Assembly (NCBI GenBank): GCA_016927685.1 | Contig: JAFGMD010000024.1 | Span: 7,314 to 71,313, forward strand | Source: Candidatus Falkowbacteria bacterium | Lineage (GTDB): Bacteria; Patescibacteriota; Patescibacteriia; CAIXNZ01 | Reading direction: 5' to 3' | Length of the DNA stretch: 64,000 nucleotides | Shown: piece after piece, positions 2,950-62,874 of the stretch | Layout of the letters: the number at the start of each line of letters is the position of its first letter | Position numbering within the stretch: the first letter of the stretch is position 1 | The notes under the pieces: model-generated | Told to the model about the DNA's origin: nothing | What the model saw: the letters and a program-made list of their open reading frames with translations, nothing else | The model's database searches: none | Position numbers and translations under genes: made by a program

Positions 2950-3005
2950 TTTTAGAATTATAGAGTTATAGTACTATAACGCTGCAATCTATAACGCTAT
3001 AACAC
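2950..3005 (+). promoter_or_regulatory. Palindrome-containing element upstream of rpsF (shared with the ruvB upstream region)
   Basis: 14-bp perfect palindrome TTATAGTACTATAA at 2966-2979 plus direct repeats CTATAACGCT x2. Same element, same orientation relative to the gene, at 55991-56050. Confidence 0.5.
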
Positions 3006-3037
3006 TTATCAAATTAACAATATATAACAAACTAACT

Positions 3038-3517
3038 ATGAGACTAGAACACTATGAAATTCTTTACATTCTGCCCATGTCTTATACTGCAGAAGAAGTA
3101 AAGCCAATCACAAAAAAAGTCGCTGAATTAATTAAAACAAACGGCGGCACCATAACTAAAGAACAGGATTTAGACAAGCAAAAATTTGCCTATCCGATTA
3201 AAGGCCAAAGTCATGGCTACTATTTTCTTTATGAATTTAATTTAACTACTGATAAATTAATTGGCCTAAATCGTGCCTTACAATTAACTAACGAGGTTTT
3301 AAGATTTATTATTGTTAAGAAACAAGTTAAAACAGAAGAGCAATTAAAACAAGAGGCAAAAATTCAGGAAAAAATTGCAGCCAAACGAGAAAAAGAAAAA
3401 ACTGAAGAAGCAAAGGAAGAAAAAGTTAGCAAAGAAAAAGCCAAACCTAAAATTAGCTTGGAAGATCTGGATAAAAAACTGGATGAAATTTTGGGTGACA
3501 CGAAAGAAATGCTATAA
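3038..3517 (+). CDS. rpsF: 30S ribosomal protein S6 with Lys/Glu-rich C-terminal extension
   Basis: MRLEHYEILYILPMSYTAEEV...YPIKGQSHGYYFLYEF is S6-like, and the gene has the conserved rpsF-ssb-rpsR neighbourhood. Confidence 0.9.
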   Translation: MRLEHYEILYILPMSYTAEEVKPITKKVAELIKTNGGTITKEQDLDKQKFAYPIKGQSHGYYFLYEFNLTTDKLIGLNRALQLTNEVLRFIIVKKQVKTEEQLKQEAKIQEKIAAKREKEKTEEAKEEKVSKEKAKPKISLEDLDKKLDEILGDTKEML

Positions 3518-7591: not shown

Positions 7592-9895
7592 TTACGCTGG
7601 TCTTTTTTCTTCTTCATCGTTAATATCCTCTTCTGTTTCATCTTCTGGTAGTTCTAATTCCTCACCTTCTTCATCATCATCGCTTATTTCTTTCTCCTCG
7701 CCATCTTCTATCTCTTCTTCGTCAGAAGACAATTCAGCTTCATTTTCATCAACCTCTTTCTCGGTTATTAAAATTTCTCTTGGTTTTGCGCCCTCACCCG
7801 GACCGACAATACCTGCTTCTTCTAATAAATCCATCAAGCGGGCTGCGCGAGCATAACCAACTTTTAACCGTCTTTGCAAAAATGAAGTGGAGGCCTTGCC
7901 TGCCTGTAAAATAATTTCCTTTGCCTCCTCAAATAATTCATCGCCCTGATCTGGATCTGAAAAATCAACACTGCCATCTCCATTAAAAGATTTTTGCTTT
8001 TCAACTACTGAAGTATCGTAATCTGGCTTCTCTCCGCTTTCCTTTAAATAATTAACCACACGATTTATTTCTGGGTCTGATAGAAATGCCCCCTGTAAAC
8101 GTTTTGGTTTAGAAAGTTCAGCGCTAGTATATAGCATATCGCCCCTGCCAAGGAGTTTTTCTGCACCAGCATAATCTAATATGGTTCTAGAATCAGTAAT
8201 AGATGCTACGGCAAAGGCAATTCTGCCTGGTATATTAGCTTTGATTAAGCCAGTGATAACTTCAACAGATGGTCTTTGCGTTGCCAGAACTAAATGGATG
8301 CCGACAGCACGAGACATTTGAGCTAAGCGTATAATCAGTCCCTCAACTTCATGGCCCATGCTAGACATTAAATCTGCCATTTCATCTACTACAAAAACAA
8401 TGTATGGCATTTTCTCTTGTGAAATCTTGTTAAAATCATCAATATTTCTTTTACCCATCTTTTCCAAAACAATATAGCGCCTATCCATTTCCGCGATTGT
8501 CCATTTTAAAGCATTGACGGTTTTTTTAACATCAGTAATCACGGGAGTAAGTAGATGAGGAATTTCATTATATAAAGGCATTTCCACACGTTTAGGATCT
8601 ACTATAATAAATCTTAAAGTATCTGGCCCATTTTGATACAACAAACTTGTGATCACAGTATGTAAACAAACTGATTTGCCTGAACCAGTTTGACCAGCGA
8701 CTAATAAATGAGGCATTTTACCCAAGTCAGCCACCCATGTATTGCCTGCCACATCGCGCCCCAAAGGTATAGTGAGCATAGTTTTGCGTTGTTTAAACTC
8801 TGAGCTTTCTAATAATTCTCTTAAGCGTACAATTGCCACTGATTGATTTGGCACTTCAATGCCAACCAATGATTTGCCCGGAATGGGCGCCTCAATTCTT
8901 AGGGGGTGAGCAGCTAAGGCCAGGGCTAAATCATCTTGTAGCGCCGTGATTCTGGAAAGCTTAACTCCTTCTGCTGGTTTTAAAGTATATTGCGTAACAG
9001 TCGGCCCAACACTAATTTCTCCCATTTCCACGGGAATACCAAAACTTTCTAAAGTTTTTTGGATAATTTGTTTATTGGCAGCAATATTCCCAGATGTCGG
9101 CTTGCTAAATTTGTCATCCAACAAATTTAAGGGCAAATCTATTTTACGAAATACGCGCCTTGTTTTTGGTTCGTCTAGCTTATATTCTTCTTTAGGCGAT
9201 TCTTTTTGCCTTGATTCAACTTTCTTGCTGGCAAAAGCAATGTCTTTTTCTTCAGCGTCTTTTTCCTCCTCTGGCTGCACCTCTGGTTCTTGCTCTTCAT
9301 ACTCATCTTCGGGCCTGCGCGCTAATTTTAATTTCACATGATAGTACCAAATAGAGAGGCGGTCAAAAATTTTGCCTAAAACCGTGCCTGACTCTTTCAG
9401 ATTCTCAACTGAATCATTTATTATTAATAAAATTGAAATTATAAAAATAGCAACTAAGGTTATTAGCGTAGCCCAAAAACCCATAATGTTTTGCAAACTA
9501 TAACTCAAAAATAATCCAAAATATCCGCCGCCTTTACCCTCATCAACCGCCAAAACCGCATCGGGAAGGGGAATGGCTAAATGAAAAAGCGCAGTTAAAC
9601 TTAAAACAAAAAATAATAAACCAATATAGCTGGCGGCGTTTACTTTTTCCTTCTTAAATAATTTCCAACCCCATAAAACTAAAATGACAGGAAATATATA
9701 CTTAGTCCAGCCCAAAAACAATGCCAAGACCTTGTCTATTTCTTCACCTGCTCGCCCTGCTAAATTAAACAAGCCGAGCAAAGAGATGCCGGCTATTGCA
9801 AATAAAAAGATAATAAATATCCATTTTTTTGTTTCTGGATGAATTTCAGTTCGTCTAACTCCGTTACGGTTATTCTTATTTTTGTTTTTTGTCAT
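7592..9895 (-). CDS. ftsK: DNA translocase FtsK/SpoIIIE
   Basis: N-terminal TM helices, an acidic linker, motor domain with Walker A GQTGSGKS, and a C-terminal gamma domain (SFLQRRLKVGYARAARLMDLLEEAGIVGP). Confidence 0.9.
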   Translation of the reverse strand: MTKNKNKNNRNGVRRTEIHPETKKWIFIIFLFAIAGISLLGLFNLAGRAGEEIDKVLALFLGWTKYIFPVILVLWGWKLFKKEKVNAASYIGLLFFVLSLTALFHLAIPLPDAVLAVDEGKGGGYFGLFLSYSLQNIMGFWATLITLVAIFIISILLIINDSVENLKESGTVLGKIFDRLSIWYYHVKLKLARRPEDEYEEQEPEVQPEEEKDAEEKDIAFASKKVESRQKESPKEEYKLDEPKTRRVFRKIDLPLNLLDDKFSKPTSGNIAANKQIIQKTLESFGIPVEMGEISVGPTVTQYTLKPAEGVKLSRITALQDDLALALAAHPLRIEAPIPGKSLVGIEVPNQSVAIVRLRELLESSEFKQRKTMLTIPLGRDVAGNTWVADLGKMPHLLVAGQTGSGKSVCLHTVITSLLYQNGPDTLRFIIVDPKRVEMPLYNEIPHLLTPVITDVKKTVNALKWTIAEMDRRYIVLEKMGKRNIDDFNKISQEKMPYIVFVVDEMADLMSSMGHEVEGLIIRLAQMSRAVGIHLVLATQRPSVEVITGLIKANIPGRIAFAVASITDSRTILDYAGAEKLLGRGDMLYTSAELSKPKRLQGAFLSDPEINRVVNYLKESGEKPDYDTSVVEKQKSFNGDGSVDFSDPDQGDELFEEAKEIILQAGKASTSFLQRRLKVGYARAARLMDLLEEAGIVGPGEGAKPREILITEKEVDENEAELSSDEEEIEDGEEKEISDDDEEGEELELPEDETEEDINDEEEKRPA

Positions 9896-10080: not shown

Positions 10081-10216
10081 CCAGTTAAAAGTTTATGTAA
10101 TCCGTAACCTATTCCATAGAACATCAATGCGGGTATTTTATACACAAAACTTATTTACACATATACTTTTAACTATGGGTACGCGCACGGACAACATTAA
10201 TTTTGAACAAAAGGAG

Positions 10217-10234
10217 TCGGGCTGGTGGGACTTG
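10217..10234 (-). repeat. 18-nt direct repeat of the tRNA-Pro 3' end (T-arm/acceptor fragment)
   Basis: tcgggctggtgggacttg is identical at 10217-10234 and 10284-10301 (the latter inside the intact tRNA-Pro). Followed by hairpin cccgccgaaggcggg. Confidence 0.7.
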
Positions 10235-10283
10235 CCCGCCGAAGGCGGGTCCGCCTCTGGCGAAAACCCATCATCCGCAACAT

Positions 10284-10357
10284 TCGGGCTGGTGGGACTT
10301 GAACCCACGATCTTCTGGTCCCAAACCAGACGCGATAGCCAACTTCGCTACAGCCCG
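10284..10357 (-). tRNA. tRNA-Pro(TGG): tRNA-Pro (anticodon UGG)
   Basis: Revcomp reads CGGGCTGTAGCGAAGTTGGCTATCGCGTCTGGTTTGGGACCAGAAGATCGTGGGTTCAAGTCCCACCAGCCCGA, with a cloverleaf and anticodon loop TTTGGGA. Confidence 0.85.
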
Positions 10358-10434
10358 ATGCACAACAAGAGATATGATTAATAAGCAAGAGTATCTTTTA
10401 CTGTTGCTACAACTCAAATCTCATTACTGATTAG

Positions 10435-10507
10435 TGCCAAGGGGGAGAATCGGACTCCCGACGCAAGGATTTTCAGTCCTTCGCTCTACCACTGAGCTAC
10501 CTTGGCT
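10435..10507 (-). tRNA. tRNA-Phe(GAA): tRNA-Phe (anticodon GAA)
   Basis: Revcomp reads GCCAAGGTAGCTCAGTGGTAGAGCGAAGGACTGAAAATCCTTGCGTCGGGAGTCCGATTCTCCCCCTTGGCA, anticodon loop CTGAAAA. Confidence 0.85.
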
Positions 10508-10512
10508 TAAAT

Positions 10513-10552
10513 AGTGGGCGTGGATGGAATCGAACCATCGACCTCGTCATTA
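10513..10552 (-). repeat. Partial duplicate (3' half, ~40 nt) of tRNA-Ile
   Basis: 35 nt identical (gcgtggatggaatcgaaccatcgacctcgtcatta) to 10577-10611 inside the intact tRNA-Ile. No D-arm or 5' acceptor, so not a functional tRNA. Confidence 0.7.
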
Positions 10553-10573
10553 CCTGCCCCGCACTAAATCATG

Positions 10574-10647
10574 TGCGCGTGGATGGAATCGAACCATCGA
10601 CCTCGTCATTATCAGTGACGCGCTCTAACCATCTGAGCTACACGCGC
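10574..10647 (-). tRNA. tRNA-Ile(GAT): tRNA-Ile (anticodon GAU)
   Basis: Revcomp reads GCGCGTGTAGCTCAGATGGTTAGAGCGCGTCACTGATAATGACGAGGTCGATGGTTCGATTCCATCCACGCGCA, anticodon loop CTGATAA. Confidence 0.85.
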
Positions 10648-10674
10648 ATGTATTTGATCGAAAAATTTAGAATT

Positions 10675-10871
10675 TTAGTGCGGGGTCAGTGACCGACCCC
10701 AAATTTTTAAAGCAGTGACCCCGCACCAATGCTTCGCATTGTGCGGGGCGCAGCGCGCTCTAACCCGCCTCGACGAGCTGACTCGTCTCAGCTCGCTTGG
10801 GCGAAGCACAGCGAGGGGGACATCTGCCTGCCCGCCGAAGCACAAAGTGCATAGGCGGGAGCTATACACCC
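10675..10871 (-). ncRNA. GC-rich highly structured spacer between the 16S 3' end and tRNA-Ile, starting with a tRNA-Ala-like 5' fragment (GGGTGTATAGCTC)
   Basis: ~60% GC versus a ~30% background. It has multiple 6-14-bp inverted repeats (cccgcc/ggcggg; gagctga/tcagctc; ccccgcac/gtgcgggg; ggggtc/gacccc; and gtgcggggtcactg twice in inverted orientation, which allows alternative foldings). No ORF with an RBS. Confidence 0.45.
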
Positions 10872-10974
10872 AAAAACCATATCAATAAGAGCATTATAAC
10901 AAAAAAAATCGGCTTAATCAAGATCTAATTGATATTAAATAAGCCGATTTTTTTTAAATTGCATCTTCAACCGC

Positions 10975-10992
10975 TAAAAAGTGATAGAATCA
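10975..10992 (-). promoter_or_regulatory. 16S rRNA trailer half of the leader/trailer processing stem (probable RNase III site)
   Basis: ctaaaaagtgatagaatc is the exact reverse complement of gattctatcactttttag at 12617-12634 in the 16S leader. Confidence 0.7.
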
Positions 10993-11065
10993 AAATCCAA
11001 AAATTTGTTTCGTTAGAAACAACCGACCGAATAGAGCGGACTTTCGTCGCGCTCATATACTCCTT

Positions 11066-12559
<1,494 letters not shown>

Positions 12560-12616
12560 AAATAAAATGGTGATAAGGTTCACCATAACAACCTTCCCCA
12601 GTTGGGGAAATAAGGA

Positions 12617-25274: not shown

Positions 25275-25538
25275 TCAAGGCACCGGATCGTGACCGCCCT
25301 TGGCAAGGGGATGACAGCGTATTAAGCGTTTTAACCCTAGCCAACCACCTTTAATCACGCCGTATTTGGCTATTGCTTCATATGTATATTGACTGCAAGA
25401 AGGATAAAAACGACAACCCCAAAAAGGGAATATCTTGGCTAAGGGACTGTGATCAAAAGAAAGTGTTTTTTGATAAGCTCTTATGGCGAATAATACTGGG
25501 ATTCTTGCTTGAAAAATAATTTTTGAATATAAATTCAT
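25275..25538 (-). CDS. yidD: Membrane protein insertion efficiency factor YidD
   Basis: ...YQKTLS...[17 protein letters not shown] is the YidD signature, in the rnpA-yidD context. Confidence 0.85.
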
Positions 25539-25888
25539 ATTAATTTTACCTTTTTAAACGCACCCAACAAATTTTTCTCGATTTCTTCATATGTTGCTGT
25601 TTTGCCTAAATTATTTATTATCTTGGGAGACACAATAACAACTATATCATACCCTTTTGCTATTTTAGCTAAATTTAAGCGCACAATTTCACTAATTCGG
25701 CGCTTAATCAAGTTTCTTTTTGTTGCTTTTTTGCTGACTTTTGTGGAAACAACAATAGCAAAACGAGGATAAGGCAAACTATTTTGCTTATATTTTATTA
25801 TTAAAAACAAAAAATAAACCGGCTTACCATGCTTCATTAGCGCTCCAATGTCCTTTTTTTTGGTTAAACGGTTTATTTTTTTTAACAT
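25535..25888 (-). CDS. rnpA: Ribonuclease P protein component
   Basis: Basic 117-aa protein between rpmH and yidD (KINRL.K..D...[23 protein letters not shown]). Confidence 0.85.
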
Positions 25889-25898
25889 AGATTAAAAT

Positions 25899-26060
25899 TT
25901 ATTTTTTTCCTTTTCTTTCAGTTGAAACTGTTAAGCTGTGTCGGCCCCTTGCCCTTCGTCTTTTTAATACAATTCTGCCCTTTTTGCTTTTCATGCGGGC
26001 GCGGAAGCCATGAGTCTTTACTCTTTTTCTCTTTTTTGGCTGATAAGTTCTTTTTGGCAT
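25899..26060 (-). CDS. rpmH: 50S ribosomal protein L34 (missed by the >=60-aa ORF track)
   Basis: Minus-strand translation [53 protein letters not shown]. Conserved rpmH-rnpA-yidD order next to dnaA. Confidence 0.85.
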
Positions 26061-26093
26061 AAACTTTTAAAATTATAGTAAAATTATATAAAA

Positions 26094-26122
26094 ATAATAG
26101 CAGTTGTGGAAATATTTGTCAA
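26094..26122 (-). promoter_or_regulatory. Consensus sigma70 promoter for rpmH (TTGACA-17-TATTAT)
   Basis: Minus-strand TTGACA 26117-26122, 17-nt spacer containing a DnaA-box-like TTTCCACAA, -10 at 26094-26099. Confidence 0.6.
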
Positions 26123-26153
26123 AATAAAAATAATGTATTAAGATAAATCCACA
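26104..26153. promoter_or_regulatory. Degenerate DnaA boxes in the rpmH-dnaA intergenic region (oriC candidate part 1)
   Basis: TTGTGGAAA (26104-26112) and TAAATCCACA (26144-26153) match TTATCCACA with 1-2 mismatches; AT-rich surroundings. Confidence 0.4.
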
Positions 26154-26266
26154 ATTTATTAACACTCTATAAACATTTGAAGGATTGCGGATGATTTTTA
26201 GTTGTGTATTTTTATGATATTATTTTTATATAAAACAAAAATCACAATTAACTTATTTGGGGAACT

Positions 26267-27655
26267 ATGAATACCCAACAAATTTGGCAAGCAGTGCTTG
26301 GTGAATTAGAACTCGGCTTGTCTAAGGCTAATTTTACCACATGGTTCAAGGGCACCTTTATATTAGAGCTCGAGGAACCCAAGGTTGTAATTGGCGTACC
26401 CAATGCTTTCACCAAAAGTTGGCTGGAAAAAAAATATACTTCTGACATAATTAAGGCTCTTAGAAATATCACGGAAAGCAACTTAAGAGAAATAATATTT
26501 AAAGTTGCTTCTTTAAAAAATATACAAAAGGAATCTGCCGAATTTAATAAAGAAGAGTCTCCCATGCAAAACAGACCTGTAATTTCTGTTGACTCTATCT
26601 CCAAGCGTCAAGCTCCTGTAAATAATTTTGGGCTAAACCCAAAATATACGTTTTCAACATTTGTGGTTGGCAAGAATAATGAACTGGCCCGTGCCGCAGC
26701 CATGGCTGTAGCCGGTAACCCGGGCGTTACTTACAACCCTCTTTTTATTTATGGAGGCGCTGGATTGGGGAAAACCCATTTATTACAAGCAATAGGCCAT
26801 GATATTGCCGCCCGAAATTTAGATAAAAAGGTCCTTTATTTAACCTGTGAAAAATTTACTAATGATTTTGTGAATGCCATGACTGCCGGTCACGGACGCG
26901 CTAACGACTTTAAGGACATATATCGTAATGTTGATGTTCTGTTAATCGATGACATTCAATTTATAGCAGGTAAGGAAGGAACTCAAGAAGAATTTTTCCA
27001 TACATTTAACGTTTTACACCAAAACAATAAACAAATCGTTTTGTCTTCGGATCGTCCGCCAAAATCCATTCCAGCGCTAGAAAACCGACTTTTAACTCGT
27101 TTTGAGTGGGGGATGATAGCTGATATATCTTTACCTGATTATGAAACCAGGCTAGCTATTTTAAAAAGCAAAACGCAAGAAAAAAATTATTCTCTAGACC
27201 AAGCTGTTTTAAATTATTTAGCCAATTCTATAGCTTCTAATATCAGAGAGCTGGAAGGCGCTTTAAACCGCATCGTTGCTTATCATCAATTAAATGGTCT
27301 GCCTCCGACTCTGGAAAGCGTGAAAAAAATATTGGCCACCCTGACAACAAACTTGCAAAAACGTTCCTTGACCGCTAAAGACATCATCCAAACCGTGGCT
27401 AATTTTTATGACGTCACAATTGATGATATTACTGGCAAGTCCCGCGAAAAAAAATTAGTTGTTCCGCGACAAATAATTATGTTTCTAATGAGAAACGAGA
27501 CCAAAAGCTCTTTCCCCGCGATTGGTACGGAGTTGGGGGGGCGCGACCATACAACAGCCATGCATGCAGTGGAAAAAATTCAAAACGATTATGATAATGA
27601 TGAAAAAATACGCAGGGAAATCGAACAACTTAAACAAAGAATGTATAATTTATAA
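26267..27655 (+). CDS. dnaA: Chromosomal replication initiator DnaA
   Basis: AAA+ Walker A GGAGLGKTHLLQAIGH, sensor motifs and a C-terminal DNA-binding domain (...TGKSREKKLVVPRQIIMFLMRNETKSSFPAIG...). Confidence 0.95.
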   Translation: MNTQQIWQAVLGELELGLSKANFTTWFKGTFILELEEPKVVIGVPNAFTKSWLEKKYTSDIIKALRNITESNLREIIFKVASLKNIQKESAEFNKEESPMQNRPVISVDSISKRQAPVNNFGLNPKYTFSTFVVGKNNELARAAAMAVAGNPGVTYNPLFIYGGAGLGKTHLLQAIGHDIAARNLDKKVLYLTCEKFTNDFVNAMTAGHGRANDFKDIYRNVDVLLIDDIQFIAGKEGTQEEFFHTFNVLHQNNKQIVLSSDRPPKSIPALENRLLTRFEWGMIADISLPDYETRLAILKSKTQEKNYSLDQAVLNYLANSIASNIRELEGALNRIVAYHQLNGLPPTLESVKKILATLTTNLQKRSLTAKDIIQTVANFYDVTIDDITGKSREKKLVVPRQIIMFLMRNETKSSFPAIGTELGGRDHTTAMHAVEKIQNDYDNDEKIRREIEQLKQRMYNL

Positions 27656-27918
27656 TTACCTGTGTTTATTTTGGGGGAAAAGTATAATATTTTTGTGAAA
27701 AAGTTATGTAAATAAAAAGGATGAGGTCTGTAAATTTTTTTCTTTTCTCCTATATATTAAATTTACTCAAAACCCTTCCCCACAAAACCCACAAGCAAAT
27801 AAAATTTTTTTACACATCTTTTCAATATATATTTTTCAAAAATTCATAACAATAAACATATTTCTTCCCCTTATCCACAATACTATATAATATAACTATT
27901 TAATTTAATACAAAAATT
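27656..27918. promoter_or_regulatory. dnaA-dnaN intergenic region: probable oriC/DUE with a perfect DnaA box
   Basis: Perfect TTATCCACA at 27871-27879; partial boxes (cccacaa) at ~27776-27800; very AT-rich. Confidence 0.5.
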
Positions 27919-29082
27919 ATGAAAATAACTTGTACACAGGAAAATTTAAAACGCGGGCTTAATTCGGTTTCTCATATTGCTAGCAAAAATACTTCCCTGC
28001 CAATATTAAGCAATGTTTTAATAAAAGCAGATAAGGGTTCGGTAAGTTTAACTACCACAAATCTAGAAATTGGCATACGTTGTTTGGTGCGTGCAAAAAT
28101 ATATAAAGACGGCAGCTTTACTGTTAATTCTAAACTTTTAACGGATTTTATCAATCTATTGCCAAACGAAAAAATTGATTTGGAACTTAAAGACGATATG
28201 TTAGAAGTATGGACTGAAAACCAAGAAACAAAAATGAAGGGTGATAGCGCTGAAGATTTCCCCCTCATACCACAAGTAGTAAAAAAGTCTGCGTATACTT
28301 GCAGGGTTGAAGATTTATTAAAAGCATTTACACAGGTTTTATTTGCGGTTTCAGTTTCTGAGACTAGGCCCGAGATTTCCGGAGTATATTTTAATTTTAG
28401 TGAAAATAATTTAACCATTGCCGCTACAGATAGTTACCGATTGGCCGAAAAAAAGATAAGATTGTCCGAAAACGTGAAAGAAGAAAAGGAGGTCATAATC
28501 CCAGCCAGAACCATACAAGAACTCTTTAGAATATTATCATCATATTCTGGCTCTGCTATTGGCGAAGAAGAGCCCGTTAGTTTAGATAAAATTGATATTT
28601 ATTTTGAAGAAAACCAGGTCTTGTTTGTATTTAATAATATTGAGCTTGTTTCCAGAATTATTGAAGGGCAATATCCAAATTATAAGCAAATAATACCCAC
28701 AACACACAAAACAAAAGCAATAGTCAATATCGCAGAATTTGTCAAAGCGGCTAAAACAGCCTCTTTGTTCTCGCGCACCGGCATTTACGATGTCAATTTA
28801 GAGCTAAAAGACGGCAAAATAACAGTTTTTTCTACAAACAGCCAGATGGGAGAAAGCAAATCCAAGGTTAACGGCAAGATCGAGGGGGATAATAATAAGG
28901 TAGTGATAAATTATCGTTATTTATTAGATGGTTTGCAAAATACTGATTCAACCGATGTTATATTTGAAATGATTGATGCAGCCAACCCTTGCGTGTTGAG
29001 ACCAGCTGAAAGCTTAGACGAGAAAAAAGAAGCCATTGCGGCAGAGGATTATTTGTATATAATAATGCCCATAAAACAATAA
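27919..29082 (+). CDS. dnaN: DNA polymerase III beta sliding clamp
   Basis: 387 aa, three-domain clamp pattern (MKITCTQENLKRGLNSVSHIASKN...LPILSNVLIKA). Confidence 0.9.
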   Translation: MKITCTQENLKRGLNSVSHIASKNTSLPILSNVLIKADKGSVSLTTTNLEIGIRCLVRAKIYKDGSFTVNSKLLTDFINLLPNEKIDLELKDDMLEVWTENQETKMKGDSAEDFPLIPQVVKKSAYTCRVEDLLKAFTQVLFAVSVSETRPEISGVYFNFSENNLTIAATDSYRLAEKKIRLSENVKEEKEVIIPARTIQELFRILSSYSGSAIGEEEPVSLDKIDIYFEENQVLFVFNNIELVSRIIEGQYPNYKQIIPTTHKTKAIVNIAEFVKAAKTASLFSRTGIYDVNLELKDGKITVFSTNSQMGESKSKVNGKIEGDNNKVVINYRYLLDGLQNTDSTDVIFEMIDAANPCVLRPAESLDEKKEAIAAEDYLYIIMPIKQ

Positions 29083-42189: not shown

Positions 42190-42615
42190 TTAGGGCGTTG
42201 TTCCGCCTTGTTCAATTCCATTGCCGCCAGGAGCAAAAATTCCGCCCTGTGAAGAGTTTATAATTACATAAAAGACAAAATTAGTAATAGCATAAGCAGA
42301 AATTATAATAACTAAGCCGATTATTGCGTAATAAATTATGTTTTTCCCTTTTTTCACCGCATCTTCCTTCCCTTGGGCTGTCATATATATAAAGCCGCCA
42401 TATATTATTAAAATAACAGCAGCAATCCCCAAAATGGTCAGGGCAGTTCTTATTAAAACAGCAGCAATTTGCTGCGGCGAAGTATAACTGCCGCCATATA
42501 CCTGTTGGCCAAAGCTATTTACATTTTCGCTGATACTAAAAGCGCCTGCTAGATTTGGCAATAAACAAAGAGAAATTAATATTAAGTAAAATAATTTGTA
42601 TAAATTTTTGTTCAT
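42190..42615 (-). CDS. Pilin-like two-helix membrane protein, paralog 1 (VirB2/TrbC-like topology)
   Basis: Signal/TM, then conserved core ILGIAAVILIIYGGFIYMTAQGKEDAVKKGKNIIYYAIIGLVIIISAYAITNF, then a Gly-rich tail. Confidence 0.6.
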   Translation of the reverse strand: MNKNLYKLFYLILISLCLLPNLAGAFSISENVNSFGQQVYGGSYTSPQQIAAVLIRTALTILGIAAVILIIYGGFIYMTAQGKEDAVKKGKNIIYYAIIGLVIIISAYAITNFVFYVIINSSQGGIFAPGGNGIEQGGTTP

Positions 42616-42636
42616 AAAAATTATTATTATAAACTA

Positions 42637-43197
42637 TTATATTGGCGGGTTTTCTGGGGCAGTCGGCGTTTGCGGCTGGTCTATTGTGTGCGTACAACCA
42701 CAGCCCGTTGCACAGCATGATTGGCTGCAACATTCTAGCTCCCCCTGATTGCGATAACTGCAGCAATAACAAGAAAAGTAATCTCTATCTTCTGGATTTT
42801 CGCATCTTTCTGTAAAAGGAGGAGGAGTAGCGCCTGGTTGCTCTAAATTTTTGGCAACAAAATAAGTAATAGAATAACCTGAAATAATAATTACCAGGCC
42901 AACTACAGCCGTAGTGATTGTTTTTTTACCGCTACTAACCTTTTTTTCATCACCCTGTGAAGTTAAATATAAATATCCTCCGTATATTAATAATATTGTA
43001 AAGATAATGCCAATGAGGGTAAAGGCCACTTTAATGATGCTTGCTGCGTATTGTTGCGGCGTTGTGGTTTCCCCATAGCCAACTTGAGTAGCAGTGCTAG
43101 TAAGCCCTTGCAGGAATTTTGAGGCCTGAATTTCTTGGCAGGACAATAAAATTCCTAAACTAATAACGATTATTAAAATGATAATTTTTTTGTTCAT
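42637..43197 (-). CDS. Pilin-like paralog 2 with an extremely Cys-rich C-terminal tail
   Basis: Core LIGIIFTILLIYGGYLYLTSQGDEKKVSSGKKTITTAVVGLVIIISGYSITYF, and tail CENPEDRDYFSCYCCSYRNQGELECCSQSCCATGCGCTHT (14 Cys in ~40 aa). Confidence 0.6.
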   Translation of the reverse strand: MNKKIIILIIVISLGILLSCQEIQASKFLQGLTSTATQVGYGETTTPQQYAASIIKVAFTLIGIIFTILLIYGGYLYLTSQGDEKKVSSGKKTITTAVVGLVIIISGYSITYFVAKNLEQPGATPPPFTERCENPEDRDYFSCYCCSYRNQGELECCSQSCCATGCGCTHTIDQPQTPTAPENPPI

Positions 43198-43601
43198 ATT
43201 TGTACTTCTATTGACGGCTCAGTTGTTTCTTGTGGTTCAAGGAGGGAAGCCACAAAATACGAAATTGAATAAGCAGTTACAATGATGGCCAAGCCAATTA
43301 TTGCGCTAATTATTATTTTTTTCGCCTTATTGACATTTTCCTCATTTCCTCTGGCTGTCATCCAGACATAGCCTCCATAAATAACTAGAATAAAAAATAC
43401 TACTCCAACTAGGCCTAAAATTGCTTGTATGATCCTGACTACAATTTCAGTCCACCCTATGCCAGTTTCTAAGCCTGCTTCGCCGGCTGATGTATTAATA
43501 TATTGACCTGAATTTTGAATATTCAAGGCCAGGCAGGGGAGCGCTGACATGCCAAGGAGAACTATTAGTAAAAATATTATAAAAGTAATTTTTTTTCGCA
43601 T
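43194..43601 (-). CDS. Pilin-like paralog 3
   Basis: Core ILGLVGVVFFILVIYGGYVWMTARGNEENVNKAKKIIISAIIGLAIIVTAYSISYF; 4-nt overlap with paralog 2. Confidence 0.6.
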   Translation of the reverse strand: MRKKITFIIFLLIVLLGMSALPCLALNIQNSGQYINTSAGEAGLETGIGWTEIVVRIIQAILGLVGVVFFILVIYGGYVWMTARGNEENVNKAKKIIISAIIGLAIIVTAYSISYFVASLLEPQETTEPSIEVQI

Positions 43602-43609
43602 AGTAATGA

Positions 43610-44026
43610 TTAAATTTGATAAATTTGGTCCGAGTCCTGTTCTGGCGTTTCCGGTTCAATGGCCGAGGAAATAAAATATGTTATTGAATAAGCCGCTGCC
43701 ACTATTAATAAGCCTATTACAGCGTAAATAATAATTTTTTTAGCTTTTTGAACTTTTTCTGTAGTCCCTGCCGCAGTCATATATAAAAAACCTCCATAGA
43801 TAATTAATACTACAAACATGGCACCAACAAGACCCAAAAATAAGTTAATTACCATCGCTACTACTTCGGCAAACTCCGCTTTTTGCAAACCTGTTTCGGT
43901 TTGTGTCTGCTGGGTAAATTCATTAATATTTTGCAAGCTATAGGCATTGAGCAGAGAAGCAGAAAATAAAAAAATACCAAACAGAATGGTTGTTAAAAGA
44001 AAAAATTTTAAATATTTACTAGGCAT
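43610..44026 (-). CDS. Pilin-like paralog 4
   Basis: Core FLGLVGAMFVVLIIYGGFLYMTAAGTTEKVQKAKKIIIYAVIGLLIVAAAYSITYF. Confidence 0.6.
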   Translation of the reverse strand: MPSKYLKFFLLTTILFGIFLFSASLLNAYSLQNINEFTQQTQTETGLQKAEFAEVVAMVINLFLGLVGAMFVVLIIYGGFLYMTAAGTTEKVQKAKKIIIYAVIGLLIVAAAYSITYFISSAIEPETPEQDSDQIYQI

Positions 44027-44039
44027 GTTTAAGATTTAT

Positions 44040-44414
44040 TTATTGCCCGCCAACTGCCTGAAAAATAAGTGCTGTTATGGCATATGCGGCCCCCAGAACA
44101 ATAGCGCCGATAATTGACCACTTAATTACCTCCTTGCCCTTATCGACTTTTTTAGAATCACCAGCCGCACTCATTATTAAAATTCCGCCGTATACCATTA
44201 AAAATAAGAAAAGCGAACCAGCAATGGCCAAGGCAGCGCCGGCAATGCGGCCCAGAAATACTGGTGCATCAATCATAAGGCTTTCGCCTAGCCCTGCCTC
44301 TTTAGCCGTGGTTGATAAACCATGATCTCCTTGAGCAGAAACAGTATTAGCGCCATAAATAGAAAATAATAAAATAAAAATTTTTGTAATACTTGTTATA
44401 TATTTTTTAATCAT
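44040..44414 (-). CDS. Pilin-like paralog 5 (C-terminus ends GGQ)
   Basis: Core LAIAGSLFLFLMVYGGILIMSAAGDSKKVDKGKEVIKWSIIGAIVLGAAYAITAL. Confidence 0.6.
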   Translation of the reverse strand: MIKKYITSITKIFILLFSIYGANTVSAQGDHGLSTTAKEAGLGESLMIDAPVFLGRIAGAALAIAGSLFLFLMVYGGILIMSAAGDSKKVDKGKEVIKWSIIGAIVLGAAYAITALIFQAVGGQ

Positions 44415-44426
44415 ATTGACTATTAA

Positions 44427-44460
44427 ATATTAAGGGCAGACGATTGCCTGCCCTTAATAT
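44427..44460 (-). terminator. Strong hairpin between paralogs 6 and 5 (possible internal terminator/attenuator)
   Basis: 13-bp perfect inverted repeat atattaagggcag / ctgcccttaatat with an 8-nt loop; the downstream U-run is weak (aauauuu). Confidence 0.4.
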
Positions 44461-44467
44461 TCCTTAA

Positions 44468-44842
44468 TTACTGTTGAGATGTCGCATTAATAATATTGGT
44501 CAAAACGAAATTGGCAATGGCATATGCCGATAAGATAATCACAAGACCTATTACGCCCTGAAAGATAAGCTTCTTTGCAGTTTTTACGTTTTCTTCATTA
44601 CCCATGGCAGTCATCCATTTAAAGCCGCCTACTAATATGATAACCACGGCAACTACGCCTAAAAGGCCCATGGCCACATTAATTATTGTGGCAATAGTTG
44701 TTCTGATGTCGCCTGTGGGTAAACCGGTTGAAGTAACATAGCTTAAGCCCACATCTAAAGTTGTTTGCGCTGCGACTAATTCTGGCAAAAGAATTAGGGC
44801 TAAAAGTCCTAATATCATGCCAATTTTCATCCCTTTTTTCAT
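44468..44842 (-). CDS. Pilin-like paralog 6
   Basis: Core AMGLLGVVAVVIILVGGFKWMTAMGNEENVKTAKKLIFQGVIGLVIILSAYAIANF. Confidence 0.6.
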   Translation of the reverse strand: MKKGMKIGMILGLLALILLPELVAAQTTLDVGLSYVTSTGLPTGDIRTTIATIINVAMGLLGVVAVVIILVGGFKWMTAMGNEENVKTAKKLIFQGVIGLVIILSAYAIANFVLTNIINATSQQ

Positions 44843-45000
44843 AATTGGATCCTTCTTAGCTTAGTTAATTCACTAAGCAATAAGATTAATTATTTAAATA
44901 TATTTATCCGTTTAAAAGCGGTTTTTAAAAAAACATTATCTTTATAATATTATACTATTTTAGCTTTCAAACCGCAATATTTAAATATTTTTTATTATAT

Positions 45001-45372
45001 TTATGTGCCACTCTGTGTAATACCCGTTATAATATAATTTACAAAAATATAGCTGCCAAATATTATTAAAAGTCCGATTACAGACCAAATTAGTATGTCT
45101 TTGCCCTTTTTAACCATATCTGGGTTGCCATGGGAAGTCAGCATAAACATGCCGCCATAGATAAACATAATAAAGGCAATTGAGCCAACTATAGCCAAAA
45201 CAGCTTTTATGATTCGCCCTATTAATTTTTGCACTCCGGCCTCTCCCGGCTCAAGCTTAATAGGCGAAATATCACTAATACTTACTTGACCTAATGCGGG
45301 AATATAATTAAGAAATATTCCTATAGTGGCCAATAATATTGTTATTAAGATAAGAAATCTAATTTTTTTCAT
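45001..45372 (-). CDS. Pilin-like paralog 7
   Basis: Core VLAIVGSIAFIMFIYGGMFMLTSHGNPDMVKKGKDILIWSVIGLLIIFGSYIFVNY. Confidence 0.6.
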   Translation of the reverse strand: MKKIRFLILITILLATIGIFLNYIPALGQVSISDISPIKLEPGEAGVQKLIGRIIKAVLAIVGSIAFIMFIYGGMFMLTSHGNPDMVKKGKDILIWSVIGLLIIFGSYIFVNYIITGITQSGT

Positions 45373-45388
45373 AAAAATTTATATTAAT

Positions 45389-45853
45389 TTATTTACATTC
45401 TCCGGTTTGGACGTCACATTTTTTGCCCGCTGGGCAATTAGCATCGCTTTTACACGGGCAGATGAGCTTTGATTCAATCCATTGCTGGGGGTCTGAAATT
45501 TCACCGCCTGAAACAACAACCAATATAAAGGCAATAATAAAATATGCCAAAAAAATAATGGCCATCCCAATTAAGGCATTAATTATTATATCTTTACCCT
45601 TTTTAACTTGATTTGGGTTACCACCAGAAATCAGCATTGTAAAACCGCCATAAATAAAATATAGCAGCAACAAACTTCCAACTATAGCTAAAATGAATTT
45701 GCCAATATTTATCGCCACATTGACCATATCACAAAGTGTGCAATCTCCAGTCGCAGTGCAAGGTGGTAAGATTTGGGCATTTGCGCATTTTATTCCAAAA
45801 AACAATATAAAAATTATTACGAATAAGCTGAGGATGTATTTTTTGTTTAACAT
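45389..45853 (-). CDS. Pilin-like paralog 8 with Cys-rich N- and C-terminal exposed segments
   Basis: Core ILAIVGSLLLLYFIYGGFTMLISGGNPNQVKKGKDIIINALIGMAIIFLAYFIIAF; N-terminal CTATGDCTLCD and C-terminal CPCKSDANCPAGKKCDVQTGECK. Confidence 0.6.
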   Translation of the reverse strand: MLNKKYILSLFVIIFILFFGIKCANAQILPPCTATGDCTLCDMVNVAINIGKFILAIVGSLLLLYFIYGGFTMLISGGNPNQVKKGKDIIINALIGMAIIFLAYFIIAFILVVVSGGEISDPQQWIESKLICPCKSDANCPAGKKCDVQTGECK

Positions 45854-61245: not shown

Positions 61246-62874
61246 TTATTTCTTCTTGGGTTCGTCAGCCTTGGGCCTTGAACCGTCTTCGGTCTTGGCC
61301 GGCTGGCCGGTTTTGTCTCCGACAGCTTCCTTGCTCATGGCTGCCAGCTTGTTGCCGAGCAGTTCACTCGCTTTTTTCAGGATTTCGGTCGGATCGACCA
61401 GGCCGCTGGCTTTGAGCTGCTGCACAAAGTCAAAGAACATTTTGGGAACGATGGAGGCCACACGGTTCATCGCTCCGTCTCCGCCGCTGCCAGTGTCCCA
61501 GACAGTGAGGTTGTCGATGCTGCCGAGTGAAGAGGCTAGTGAGGAGAATATTTTTTCGGCAACTTCGCCGCCTGCTTCGCCAATGGCTTTAATGACTTCG
61601 GGTGATTTTTCCATGAGGAAGAGCAGTTGGCCGGCCTGATTCAGTTTGGTCAGGGCCTCGGCCAGTTTTTCCTTGCCTTCGGCTTCGGCCAGTAGCTGGG
61701 CCTTGGTGCCATCGGCGATGGCGACCAACTTGGCCTTTTCCGCGTCTGCGGCTGCTTGGCCTTGTTGCCTGATTTTGGCAGCATCGCCTTCGGCTTCCAG
61801 AACAGCTGCACTCTTTTTGGCCTCGGCCAATTTGATCGCGGCCTGCGCTTCACCATCGGCCTTGAGAATGGCCGCCTGTCGTTGTGCTTCGGCATTGATG
61901 ACTGCGGCTTTTTGGTTTGCCTCGGCTTCTCTGATGGTCGTGGCTTCCAACTGTTTTTGCCGACGAGCCGCTTCTTTTTCCTGGACCAAAGTAGCGCCTT
62001 CGGTCTCAGCCGCAAGAGTGGCCTGCTCAGCAGTTTTCACGTCCTTTTCAGCCAAGGCCTTGGCTTTGGGCCCTGCCTGGGCAGCCAATGCTTCCTGGGC
62101 CTGAACTTCTGCCGCGTAAGCGGCCTTTTTGACTGACAGGTTTTTGTTGGCTTCGGCGATTTTTCTTTCGTTTTCGGCCGCAATCTCCGCTGCCTCTCTC
62201 ATGGCTTCAGATGTCTTTTTCTTGGCTTCGGCTTCGGCCTGGGCTTTGCCGATGGCCGCGTCACGCTGGACTTCGGCGGTTCTCTTTTGGCCCAGGGCGT
62301 TCAAATAGTTGTGAGCGTCGGAGATGCTTTTGATGCCGATAGAATCGGCATCCAAGCCCATTTTCTGCAGATCCACCAGGGACTCGCTGGTTATCTTTTC
62401 GGCAAAGGTTTTACGATCCGAGTTGAGTTCTTCAATAGTCATGGTGCCGACAATGGCGCGCAAATGCGCTTCCAAAGTCTGCAGAGCCGTGTTTTGGATT
62501 TCCTGAGGCCTGCCCAGGAATCGTTCAACGGCGTTGATTACTGAGGTATCATCGCTCTTGATCTTGATATTGGCGATCGCATCAATGCTGACTGGCACGC
62601 CGTCTTTGTTGTAGGCGTCAGTGACTCTGACATCGATCGTCATCAATTCCAGGCTCAGGTATTGGGTCTGTTCGATGATAGGCCAGACAAAGGTAGCACC
62701 GCCGCGAACAATCCTGTAGCCGACCTCCTTGTCTCCCAGTTTGCGTTTGCGTCCAGTGATGATAGCCACCTTATCTGGCGGAACCTTGATGTAGCGTTTG
62801 GACCACACCAGAAAACCGCCAACAAAGGCGAGTGCCAGAACGACAATAATGACTGGAATAATGAACGCTCCCAT
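61246..62874 (-). CDS. Flotillin-like SPFH/band-7 protein (YqiK/FloT-like) with a long Ala/Glu/Lys-rich coiled coil
   Basis: N-terminal TM, SPFH domain (KVPPDKVAIITGRK...VTDAYNKDGVPVSIDAIANIKI), ~250-aa EA-rich coiled coil, C-terminal region. Confidence 0.85.
   Translation of the reverse strand: MGAFIIPVIIVVLALAFVGGFLVWSKRYIKVPPDKVAIITGRKRKLGDKEVGYRIVRGGATFVWPIIEQTQYLSLELMTIDVRVTDAYNKDGVPVSIDAIANIKIKSDDTSVINAVERFLGRPQEIQNTALQTLEAHLRAIVGTMTIEELNSDRKTFAEKITSESLVDLQKMGLDADSIGIKSISDAHNYLNALGQKRTAEVQRDAAIGKAQAEAEAKKKTSEAMREAAEIAAENERKIAEANKNLSVKKAAYAAEVQAQEALAAQAGPKAKALAEKDVKTAEQATLAAETEGATLVQEKEAARRQKQLEATTIREAEANQKAAVINAEAQRQAAILKADGEAQAAIKLAEAKKSAAVLEAEGDAAKIRQQGQAAADAEKAKLVAIADGTKAQLLAEAEGKEKLAEALTKLNQAGQLLFLMEKSPEVIKAIGEAGGEVAEKIFSSLASSLGSIDNLTVWDTGSGGDGAMNRVASIVPKMFFDFVQQLKASGLVDPTEILKKASELLGNKLAAMSKEAVGDKTGQPAKTEDGSRPKADEPKKK

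Follow-up and report, generated by a model that had tools for sequence, protein, structure and literature searches.

What is the GC-rich block that lies between the 16S ribosomal RNA (rRNA) gene and an intact tRNA-Ile gene in a 64-kb stretch of DNA (hereafter the window) from a bacterium that NCBI names Candidatus Falkowbacteria (Patescibacteria, or candidate phyla radiation, CPR)? The window is part of a single metagenome assembly, and it was compared with fragments of relatives' genomes, whose loci are labelled L0xx. On the minus strand, the genes are arranged as 16S rRNA (12565..11068), an AT-rich spacer, the GC-rich block (10871..10675), tRNA-Ile(GAT) (10647..10574), tRNA-Phe, tRNA-Pro, tRNA-Gly, and then ftsK (9895..7592). 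An earlier reading of the letters of this DNA (the original prediction) had taken the block for a spacer that begins with a fragment of tRNA-Ala. Judged from its sequence, the block is instead the 5' two-thirds of a second tRNA-Ile gene, broken by insertions. Two further features went beyond that prediction: the intact tRNA-Ile itself sits inside one of the inserts, and the 3' half of the outer gene lies downstream of it. The outer gene is probably the shell of a resident tRNA-Ile gene that was invaded by a palindrome-flanked cassette carrying a replacement tRNA, and that is now only transcribed as a 5' leader.

The features that drew attention to the block are real and go beyond chance. At 61.4% GC (~60% had been claimed), it is the most GC-rich of all 197-nt windows in the 64 kb (mean 36.1%, standard deviation 7.1%); the background is about 36% GC here, and not the ~30% that had been given for the genome. 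The predicted RNA fold of 10675-10871 reached -98.1 kcal/mol, compared with -77.0 +/- 4.4 kcal/mol in 200 dinucleotide shuffles (z -4.8; 0/200 shuffles folded equally well). At least five hairpins were found, as predicted, and three of them gave z values of about -3.0 to -3.3 when folded singly. Both partners of the two mutually exclusive pairings were located as well: GTGCGGGG(TCACTG), at 10726..10713, is complementary to GCCCCGCAC at 10750..10742 and, alternatively, to CACTGACCCCGCAC at 10691..10678 (17 nt, 88% complementary), which confirms the competing pairings of GTGCGGGGTCACTG; the alternative 49-nt pairing, folded singly, gave z -4.8. In the window, GTGCGGGG occurs 4 times (0.62 expected), and all four copies are in the tRNA-Ile locus. 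The tRNA-like 5' motif GGGTGTATAGCTC (10871..10859) and the later D-arm-like GGGTTAGAGCGC (at about 10765..10754) are likewise present. The suggested check against Rfam brought up no family besides tRNA and 16S that explains the stems: at the gathering score, the whole window yielded nothing in this locus besides the tRNAs and the 16S rRNA, and at E <= 10 the region 10350-11100 added only weak microRNA and small RNA noise. The catalytic-core models of group I and group II introns had no match in 10350-11100 at E <= 10.

Five inserts of 33, 56, 35, 26, and 133 nt can be removed in silico from 10871..10515, and the outer gene then consists of six pieces (coordinates checked by script) that join, in RNA letters, as GGGUGUAUAGCUC-AGAUG-GUUAGAGCGCG-UCACUGA-UAAUGACG, with the 3' end CACGCCCA. 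The joined gene is 74 nt long, and ARAGORN calls it tRNA-Ile(GAT) with an A73 discriminator. It agrees with the inner tRNA-Ile at 70/74 positions, and every one of the four differences lies in the acceptor stem (outer, GGGTGTA/CACGCCC; inner, GCGCGTG/CACGCGC). The outer acceptor stem has five Watson-Crick pairs, one G.U pair (U4.G69), and one A.C mismatch (A7xC66), and its pair 3:70 is G-C. When the whole 376-nt locus was folded, the distant outer acceptor strands were paired in both the minimum free energy and the centroid structures. As encoded, the outer gene gave no tRNA call over 10871..10675 or 10552..10515 by Rfam (gathering score and E <= 10) or ARAGORN. The original prediction had offered a heavily disrupted, insertion-bearing tRNA gene as one possibility, and this part holds, with five inserts in a tRNA-Ile; the claim that a T-arm and a 3' acceptor are lacking is right within the block, but both are found at 10552..10515, beyond the intact tRNA-Ile.

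The pieces and inserts, all on the minus strand, follow each other without a gap. Piece 1 (10859..10871) contains the 5' strands of the acceptor stem and the D-stem (GGGTGTA TA GCTC; GGGTGTATAGCTC) and matches the inner tRNA-Ile of L018 (GGGCGTATAGCTC) at 12/13 positions. It is separated from piece 2, the D-loop segment AGATG (10821..10825), by insert 1 (10826..10858; 33 nt), a GC hairpin with a CAGG tail (CCGCC..GGCGGGCAGGC; -17 kcal/mol, z -3.3). Insert 2 (10765..10820; 56 nt), also in the D-loop, is GC-rich with a 9-bp hairpin; its boundary G is ambiguous at either end, and BLAST found no homologue of it in any fetched locus. Piece 3 (10754..10764; GTTA GAGC G CG, GTTAGAGCGCG) supplies the end of the D-loop, the 3' strand of the D-stem, and the start of the anticodon stem, and has the same sequence in L002 and L018. 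Between positions 28 and 29 of the anticodon stem lies insert 3 (10719..10753; 35 nt), the hairpin CTGCG-CCCCGCAC..GTGCGGGG (-20.6 kcal/mol, z -3.3), which is 100% identical over all 35 nt in L002 and has one change in L018 (CTACG for CTGCG). Piece 4a (10713..10718; TCACTG) completes this stem and starts the loop. It is followed by insert 4 (10687..10712; 26 nt), a short AT-rich piece composed of CTTTAAAAATTTGGGGTCGG and a second copy of TCACTG, which L002 and L018 share with two differences each, and by piece 4b, the single nucleotide A35 of the anticodon GAT (10686).

Insert 5 (10553..10685; 133 nt), the nest cassette, is positioned between A35 and T36 of the outer anticodon and consists of a left arm (CCCCGCACTAAA, 10685..10674), a leader, a complete tRNA-Ile, a trailer, and a right arm (TTTAGTGCGGGG plus CAGG, 10568..10553). 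The intact tRNA-Ile(GAT) is thus bracketed by a perfect 12-nt inverted repeat, CCCCGCACTAAA / TTTAGTGCGGGG. This inner gene (10574..10647; acceptor GCGCGTG/CACGCGC), scored at 75 bits by the Rfam tRNA model and also called by ARAGORN, is the working tRNA-Ile. Piece 5 (10515..10552), the 3' half of the outer gene from T36 to A73 (TAATGACG AGGTC GATGG TTCGATT CCATC CACGCCC A; TAATGACGAGGTCGATGGTTCGATTCCATCCACGCCCA), belongs, as TAATGACG...CACGCCCA, to a direct repeat of 52 nt that is 87% identical to the 3' part of the inner gene. A parse with the anticodon GGT (tRNA-Thr) was dropped: because CAGG is the tail of the insert family and belongs to the insert, CTGA is left joined to TAA at this junction, and the anticodon is GAT.

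Inserts 1, 3, and 5, as well as many inserts in relatives, are GC-rich hairpins, and many of them carry the CAGG tail (insert 3 ends with CGCAG). Inserts 3 and 5 share the hairpin core CCCCGCAC..GTGCGGGG, and that of insert 1 is CCCGCC..GGCGGG. Insert 1 has a homologue (90% by BLAST) at the same D-loop site, after GCT^C, in the outer tRNA-Phe of L002; by inspection, this site is also occupied in L016 and L020, where the stem pairing is kept through two-sided changes. Along the sense strand of the tRNAs, inserts 1 and 5 read hairpin plus CAGG, and family members in the variable loop and the T-loop of outer tRNA-Phe genes read CCTG plus hairpin. The CCCCGCAC hairpin also occurs outside tRNAs, namely in the terminator loop after recA (L016) and in intergenic DNA (L003). 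Since the family is found in both orientations and outside tRNA genes, its members would be palindromic elements at the DNA level rather than strand-specific introns. Read in one orientation, 5/9 independent insertion sites are directly 3' of GA by our reading. Inserts 3 and 5 are among them; the quasi-palindrome TCACTGA has a TGA motif on each strand, and each insert uses one of the two, which would explain the mutually exclusive pairings. The CAGG/CCTG palindrome was seen in the window, L002, L016, L018, L020, L021, and L022; none of the window copies is more than about 0.4 kb away from the tRNA cluster, and relatives have a few copies outside tRNAs.

As in repetitive extragenic palindromic (REP) sequences and their paired forms (REPINs), a GC-rich imperfect palindrome is combined with a flanking tetranucleotide (CCTG plus CCCCGYAC..GTRCGGGG, or the reverse with CAGG). 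Insert 5 has no target-site duplication of the kind made by DDE-type miniature inverted-repeat transposable elements (MITEs), with CTGA on one side and TAAT on the other; its terminal inverted repeats are 12 nt long and perfect, and those of relatives' cassettes are 16-18 nt. The bulge-helix-bulge (BHB) motif consists of two 3-nt bulges 4 bp apart, with exon-intron pairing at both junctions. Every junction was inspected and none has such a motif: the hairpins are internal to the inserts, and the start of the 3' exon is unpaired with the start of the insert. The insert 5 junction has a 3-bp central helix with bulges of 1 nt and 4 nt 3' of it, and neither the geometry nor the handedness of this arrangement is that of a BHB motif. 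A Pfam scan of about 65 open reading frames (ORFs) in the 64-kb window revealed no transposase, integrase, HNH, GIY-YIG, RtcB, or EndA; no Y1/RAYT gene is among these ORFs, and no homing-endonuclease ORF lies in or beside the window's tRNA cluster. Insert 5 also departs from integrase-mediated tRNA islands, as it comes with no integrase in the window, leaves both 5' and 3' fragments, and carries a whole tRNA; an 18-nt repeat after tRNA-Pro does fit the direct repeats of such islands. The inserts fit palindromic elements that would act at the DNA level, like REPs or derivatives of IS200/IS605, and the suspicion of the original prediction that GC-rich selfish elements are involved is thereby borne out, in the form of a palindromic insert family.

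The tRNA-Ile nest is known from three genomes (the window, L002, and L018). The Ile-in-Ile arrangement and the gene order are common to the window, L002, and L018/L019, and inserts 3, 4, and 5 are present in all of them. The 16S rRNA is 95.0% identical to that of the window in L002 and 98.5% in L018, and L019 equals L018 over the compared region. Inserts 1 and 2 are found in the window only; L002 and L018 lack them and have an uninterrupted outer D-arm, with an AT-rich MITE at the 5' end where the window has these inserts. The 5' end of the outer gene is at the same spot in the three genomes, behind a conserved hairpin and a promoter-like site. In the more distant L013 and L020, the tRNA-Ile that follows this hairpin and promoter is an ordinary gene with no interruption, which indicates that the outer gene would be the resident one.

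The acceptor stems distinguish these genomes. In L002 they are GCGCGTG/CACGCGC (outer) and GGACGTG/CACGTCC (inner), and in L018, GCGCGTG/CACGCGC (outer) and GGGCGTA/TACGCCC (inner); L018 also has different T-stems, CCTGG/CCAGG in the outer and GATGG/CCATC in the inner gene. The outer allele of the window is therefore close to the inner allele of L018, and its inner allele equals the outer alleles of L002 and L018. The 3' strand of the window's outer stem, CACGCCC, reads as a chimera of CACGCGC and TACGCCC of the relatives, and such a chimera would create exactly the A7xC66 mismatch of the shell. The inner tRNA-Ile genes (window 10574-10647, L002 8971-9045, L018 2410-2484) have the acceptors GCGCGTG, GGACGTG, and GGGCGTA, fully compensated, on identical bodies, and the acceptors of tRNA-Phe show a like pattern (GCCAAGG, GCCGAGG, GCCTGGG, and GCCGAAG). 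Going by these alleles, acceptor-stem turnover is unusually fast among genomes whose 16S rRNAs are 95-98.5% identical. Across the three genomes, inserts 3 and 4 plus the left arm are 96.6-97.8% identical, the 16S-proximal spacer 83-87%, and the AT-rich leader of the cassette 62-70%. The comparative alignment that had been proposed as a check thus shows inserts 3 and 4 to be conserved in relatives, but it is uninformative on covariation, as the stems are near-invariant in the three genomes. Among the contigs found by FtsK-based look-ups, those of L001 and L011 end before the tRNA cluster and the gene order differs in L012 and L017. TrmD-based look-ups added no further Ile nests: L026-L028 break inside the 16S rRNA gene, L025 stops just after TrmD, and the gene order differs in L029.

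Nests of other tRNAs were found in relatives and in metagenomes. A tRNA-Phe lies inside a tRNA-Phe in L002, L013, L016, and L020; those of L013 and L020 have cassette ends homologous to the window's, with one change per arm and the pairing kept (CCCTGCAC/GTGCAGGG; CCCTGCACTAAA.../...TTTAGTGCAGGGCAGG). A tRNA-Arg lies inside Arg-like remnants on two unrelated metagenome contigs, L021 and L022, which were found by the cassette-end pattern in a scan that returned four loci, two of them already known. In L012, a tRNA-Gly(TCC) lies inside an otherwise intact tRNA-Gly(TCC), with different inverted repeats and an interruption only in the anticodon loop. Cassette ends of the insert 5 kind thus flank tRNA-Ile (L002, L018), tRNA-Phe (L013, L020), and tRNA-Arg (L021, L022), and in-silico removal of the inserts gave valid tRNAs from 6/7 outer genes. 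Partial duplications exist as well, of a 3' piece only (tRNA-Pro in the window, tRNA-Gly in L002) or a 5' piece only (tRNA-Arg in L002). Among viral contigs, the cassette pattern had 0 matches, and the short hairpin pattern had 13, which are nearly all in GC-rich phages and were judged to be chance. One of the 13, on the moderately AT-rich IMG/VR contig L037 (45% GC), is a full two-tailed palindrome at 2923-2966, CCTG-CCCCGCAC...GTGCGGGG-CAGG; the other 12 are the ones in GC-rich phages.

Small GIY-YIG genes are located inside or beside the nested tRNAs of the relatives L007 (7690-8230), L013 (1998-2264 and about 2950-3240), L016 (277-525), and L020 (3083-3400). They are single-domain, and one is a pseudogene with an in-frame stop. 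In L007, a unit composed of a tRNA-Ile 5' part with a GC hairpin in its D-loop and a GIY-YIG ORF is repeated at least twice before an intact tRNA-Ile.

Starting from these observations (the anatomy, the tRNA-Ile homology of the pieces, their recurrence in relatives, the two orientations, and the copies outside tRNAs), we propose the following course of events. A cassette with inverted-repeat arms, in which a short leader and a trailer enclose a complete tRNA, would have inserted into the anticodon of the resident tRNA-Ile, by the action of a hairpin-recognising transposase or by endonuclease-triggered homing with co-conversion. The insertion would be survivable because the cassette supplies the same tRNA, and this would also account for every nest being same-in-same. 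The disabled shell may later have gathered further palindromic inserts, of which inserts 1 and 2 are specific to the window. The shell would be co-transcribed from the old promoter as a structured leader and trailer of the inner tRNA, and RNase P and ordinary 3'-end processing would trim both. Finally, shells would erode or be deleted by recombination between direct repeats, with the incoming allele remaining, and the remnants after tRNA-Pro (window) and at tRNA-Gly and tRNA-Arg (L002) look like such later stages. Several outer genes are indeed defective: the outer tRNA-Phe of L020 has non-matching acceptor strands (GCCTGGG with CCTCAGC), that of L016 has an 8-nt anticodon loop and a T-stem mismatch, that of L002 has lost its anticodon stem, L022 has just a 5' fragment left, and the window's own shell shows the A7xC66 mismatch and the U4.G69 wobble. 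At every fetched locus, moreover, the anticodon of an interrupted tRNA is also that of an uninterrupted gene inside it or beside it.

Several observations weigh against this history. Outside the acceptor stem, the shell pieces are 60/60 identical to the inner gene, and the differences between genomes in the acceptor (2:71) and in the T-stem of L018 (49:65, 50:64) are fully compensated, as under structural selection; these differences may be those of once-functional, different resident alleles that were brought together by recurrent invasion or by recombination (a mosaic). Inserts 3 and 4 and the left arm, so much better conserved than the AT-rich leader, seem to be under constraint or to have been exchanged recently. 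Between the window and L018, the inner and outer acceptor alleles have traded places, which a single ancestral insertion does not explain. The 64-kb window holds no transposase, integrase, or homing endonuclease, its GC palindromes are confined to the tRNA cluster, and the window version is that of one metagenome assembly; an assembly chimera among strains may lie behind any single contig.

The explanations that compete with a relic shell differ widely in what they leave unaccounted for. That the block is a disrupted tRNA-Ala in the canonical 16S-tRNA-Ile-tRNA-Ala-23S slot was suggested by GGGTGTATAGCTC, which resembles the start of the E. coli tRNA-Ala and agrees with its first 13 nt at 11/13 positions. 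The joined pieces, however, carry the anticodon GAT and G-C at 3:70 instead of the G3:U70 of tRNA-Ala; the 5' piece matches a relative's tRNA-Ile at 12/13 positions and the tRNA-Ala(GGC) of L002 (GGGCCGCTAGCTC) at 9/13; and no 23S rRNA follows. Nor does the element occupy the position of a tRNA-Ala directly behind the 16S rRNA gene, since it sits where relatives have an ordinary tRNA-Ile and is preceded by a hairpin (10955..10901) and a promoter-like site (10921..10893). We consider this identity extremely improbable; a genuine tRNA-Ala(GGC) of the clade, that of L002, does carry G3:U70, and its 5' end is different. We give equally little credence to a small protein-coding gene: a 64-codon ORF with a GTG start does exist (10869..10675, minus strand), but it coincides exactly with the stop-poor GC-rich inserts, its frame cannot be conserved (the closest relatives have the AT-rich MITE and not inserts 1 and 2), and tRNA pieces and palindromes account for the whole sequence. 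A third possibility is that no cassette was involved and a single tRNA-Ile was copied in situ by palindrome-induced template switching or slippage, with the hairpins as the cause. The identical inner and outer bodies, the palindromes and short direct repeats (TCACTG x2) at the junctions, and the 3'-only and 5'-only partial duplications (tRNA-Pro in the window; tRNA-Gly and tRNA-Arg in L002) would be expected from such an event. It is nevertheless unlikely, as the differences are concentrated in the acceptors (4/14, against 0/60 elsewhere), the outer allele matches the working allele of another genome (the window's outer is about that of the L018 inner), and the cassette ends are conserved across Ile, Phe, and Arg cargo on different contigs, which argues for a transferable unit.

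The remaining two alternatives concern what the shell does. In one, it is a functional, nested multi-intron tRNA, a counterpart of the multi-intron and split tRNAs of archaea: a bacterial endonuclease and ligase pathway would remove the hairpins from the RNA, a second tRNA-Ile would be made, and the inner tRNA would be released from the largest "intron". The near-perfect cloverleaf of the joined pieces, which have no substitutions outside the acceptor stem, speaks for this, as do the compensated acceptor and T-stem differences between genomes, the pairing of the outer acceptor and T arms in predicted folds, a conservation of the hairpins that is about that of rRNA, and the tRNA-Gly of L012, otherwise intact and cut only in the anticodon loop. 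Set against these are the occurrence of the insert family in both orientations and in non-tRNA DNA, junctions that cannot form a bulge-helix-bulge (the first 4 nt of the 3' exon are unpaired with the insert start), the lack of a group I/II intron signal, the structurally dead outer copies, the uninterrupted same-anticodon gene that is always alongside, and the absence of a splicing endonuclease or an RtcB-type ligase among the window ORFs. We regard splicing of the shell as very unlikely, and we think just as little of the chance that the CAGG-tailed hairpins represent a new class of bacterial tRNA intervening sequences, with one locus encoding two tRNA-Ile with orthogonal acceptor stems. The other alternative, which is compatible with the origin that we favour, is that the shell was exapted as a leader and is kept for expression or processing of the tRNA cluster, through 5' protection, RNase III/RNase P entry, or an attenuator. 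The shell lies between the promoter-like site and the inner tRNA, conservation is 97% in its inserts 3 and 4 and left arm but 62-87% in neighbouring spacers, it can form mutually exclusive helices, and the inner tRNA is bracketed by a 12-15-bp stem much like those of rRNA processing. This role is doubtful all the same, given that L013 and L020 have the same tRNA cluster without any such leader, that inserts 1 and 2 are missing from the closest relatives, and that the invariant hairpins give no covariation signal. The processing scaffold of the original prediction is neither needed nor supported; if the gene is a relic shell, as we favour, the region is simply the upstream leader of the inner tRNA.

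The features that flank the nest belong to the same cluster. The AT-rich hairpin between the 16S rRNA and the tRNA genes (10901..10955, minus strand; 25-nt arms, 88% complementary, with flanking A and T runs) may be a terminator-like or a processing stem; it is kept in L002 and L018, and L013 and L020 have a matching hairpin there with other stem bases. The promoter-like site TTGATT-17-TATAAT, preceded by TG (10893..10921, minus strand; 10/12 plus TG in a consensus scan), overlaps this hairpin downstream of the 16S rRNA gene and ends 21 nt upstream of the outer tRNA 5' end. As it is conserved in L002 and L018 and also stands upstream of the uninterrupted tRNA-Ile of L013 and L020, it is a candidate promoter. 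Directly after tRNA-Pro (10217..10283, minus strand), a 49-nt GC-rich insert is followed by an exact 18-nt duplicate (CAAGTCCCACCAGCCCGA, 10234..10217) of the 3' end of tRNA-Pro(TGG), all within 10217-10358 (minus strand). The core of this insert, GCCAGAGGCGGACCCGCCTTCGGCGG, recurs in L002 just upstream of the 16S rRNA gene and in the D-loop of the tRNA-Arg 5' fragment, and the duplicated site has another insert, of roughly 150 nt, in L016. An AT-rich MITE-like element (10083..10174, minus strand) with the arms AGTTAAAAGT.. / ..ACTTTTAACT (16 nt, 94% complementary) lies 2 nt upstream of tRNA-Gly(TCC) and shares a 15-nt terminal match with a family whose members in L013 and L024 directly adjoin the 5' ends of tRNAs. 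The members of this AT-rich MITE-like family (roughly 95 nt, arms ..GATAAAAGT.. / ..ACTTTTATC..) are placed exactly at the 5' ends of tRNA-Ile, -Phe, -Gly, -Ala, and -Arg, with copies in L002 (8728-8833, 9126-9225, 20440-20540) and L013 (1801-1897, 2291-2389, 3246-3340); they duplicate the first 5-7 nt of the acceptor strand, and the tRNA therefore stays intact.

Other observations concern the RNA genes and the rest of the window. Position 55 of tRNAs is nearly universally U (pseudouridine 55); the T-loop of tRNA-Phe (10435-10506) is UCCGAUU, with C at this position, as in the tRNA-Phe of L002 and L018, and it is UUCGAUU or UUCAAUU in L013 and L020. The 16S rRNA 3' end (11068-11100) is GGAUGGACCAUCUCCUUUCU, where the bacterial consensus is GGAUCACCUCCUU, and the same end is found in L002, L013, L018, and L020; this departure would mean an altered anti-Shine-Dalgarno region (UCUCC). 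No 23S rRNA was found in the 64-kb window or after the 16S rRNA gene, so the rRNA genes would be unlinked, and a gene for a 23S rRNA intervening-sequence protein (PF05635; 13578-13949, minus strand) stands free upstream of trmD and the 16S rRNA gene, not inside a 23S rRNA gene. The region 25275-29082, with yidD-rnpA on one strand and dnaA-dnaN on the other, is likely to hold the replication origin; the RNase P protein gene rnpA (25535-25888) implies that the organism uses ordinary bacterial RNase P. Eight tandem paralogues of 123-186 codons, each with a T4SS_pilin domain (PF18895), are encoded at 42190-45853 (minus strand). A second GC-rich stretch (61300-61930, about 58-60% GC) is in a 542-codon SPFH/Band 7 gene (61246-62874), past the Band 7 domain, and is probably a low-complexity C-terminal region.

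If the relic-shell reading is true, tiny selfish cassettes repeatedly overwrite tRNA genes in the minimal genomes of Patescibacteria. This would explain why the acceptor stems of near-identical strains turn over very fast and with compensation, why assemblies tend to be broken at the tRNA cluster locus, and how tRNA annotation comes to miss or mis-call fragments such as 10675-10871. If, on the other hand, the shell is spliced, Bacteria would have their first known tRNA system that is protein-spliced or fragmented, and the origins of split and multi-intron tRNAs could be studied on a living model. A full-text literature search returned no description of nested or palindrome-interrupted tRNA genes in bacteria, CPR included, and a paper on CPR insertion sequences deals with rRNA genes only and has no nested tRNAs. 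A palindrome-flanked cassette of ~130 nt with a complete tRNA inside a copy of the same tRNA, and a tRNA gene cut at five positions, both appear to be unreported for bacteria.

Parts of the arrangement nevertheless have counterparts in known systems. The GC clusters of yeast mitochondria and the Rickettsia palindromic elements are GC-rich mobile palindromes of AT-rich genomes that land in genes, RNA genes included; they are without tRNA cargo or nesting, and their sequences and hosts are unrelated to those described here. Integrative elements such as prophages and genomic islands insert into tRNA genes and bring a replacement 3' segment, with attL/attR duplication (reportedly described by Reiter et al. 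in 1989 and Williams in 2002). In such tRNA-targeting islands, as here, the insert disrupts a tRNA yet restores function with its own tRNA copy, the displaced resident fragment adjoins as a direct repeat, and the anticodon loop and T-loop are favoured; the 18-nt duplicate that follows tRNA-Pro (10234..10217) has exactly the look of a remnant of this kind. The nest cassette differs in its length of about 130 nt, its whole tRNA, the 5' and 3' fragments that it leaves, its inverted-repeat ends, and the lack of an integrase in the window. The disruption of tRNA genes by mobile DNA that bears a replacement sequence is in this sense a known theme.

Group I introns, which interrupt the anticodon loops of bacterial tRNAs (bioRxiv 10.1101/2020.01.27.920355), are the only established interruption of bacterial tRNA genes; here, no such core was detected at the locus, the hairpins are 26-56 nt long, and most sites are outside the anticodon loop. 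Phage T4 has SegB, a free-standing GIY-YIG homing endonuclease in a tRNA gene cluster (PMC2330249), and the GIY-YIG genes at the nested tRNAs of L007, L013, L016, and L020 resemble this situation; homing with co-conversion would explain a donor-like shell body with resident-like acceptor ends. In contrast, no endonuclease gene lies in or near the window element, and the CPR proteins are short and single-domain. REP sequences and REPINs are mobilised by RAYT transposases, and palindromic elements also derive from IS200/IS605 (PMC3337134, PMC3686654). The inserts share with them the GC-rich palindrome with a conserved tetranucleotide (CAGG/CCTG here, GTAG in REPs), the absence of a target-site duplication, an oriented insertion beside a short motif (3' of GA here, 5/9 sites), and copies in a terminator loop and in intergenic DNA; they differ in being concentrated in tRNA genes, in having one version with tRNA cargo, and in the absence of a RAYT/Y1 gene from the window.

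Disrupted tRNA genes have been described from archaea; they include genes with several introns or with introns at non-canonical sites, split and tri-split tRNAs, and tRNA introns that transpose (PMC4033280, PMC4390854), together with a model from Caldiarchaeum (PMC3293823), and a meeting report (PMC10714607) cites Fujishima 2009 and 2010 on the same subject. In both cases, the cuts are at non-canonical positions (D-loop, anticodon stem, anticodon, variable loop, and T-loop), short GC-rich hairpin-forming sequences occupy homologous sites of different tRNAs, and a complementary GC-rich helix joins the 5' and 3' halves. The host here, by contrast, is a bacterium, with no BHB motif at the junctions, inserts in both orientations, a nested intact copy, and several dead outer copies. 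On the relic-shell reading, the locus would offer a bacterial parallel to the debated mobile-element origin of archaeal split and intron-bearing tRNAs.

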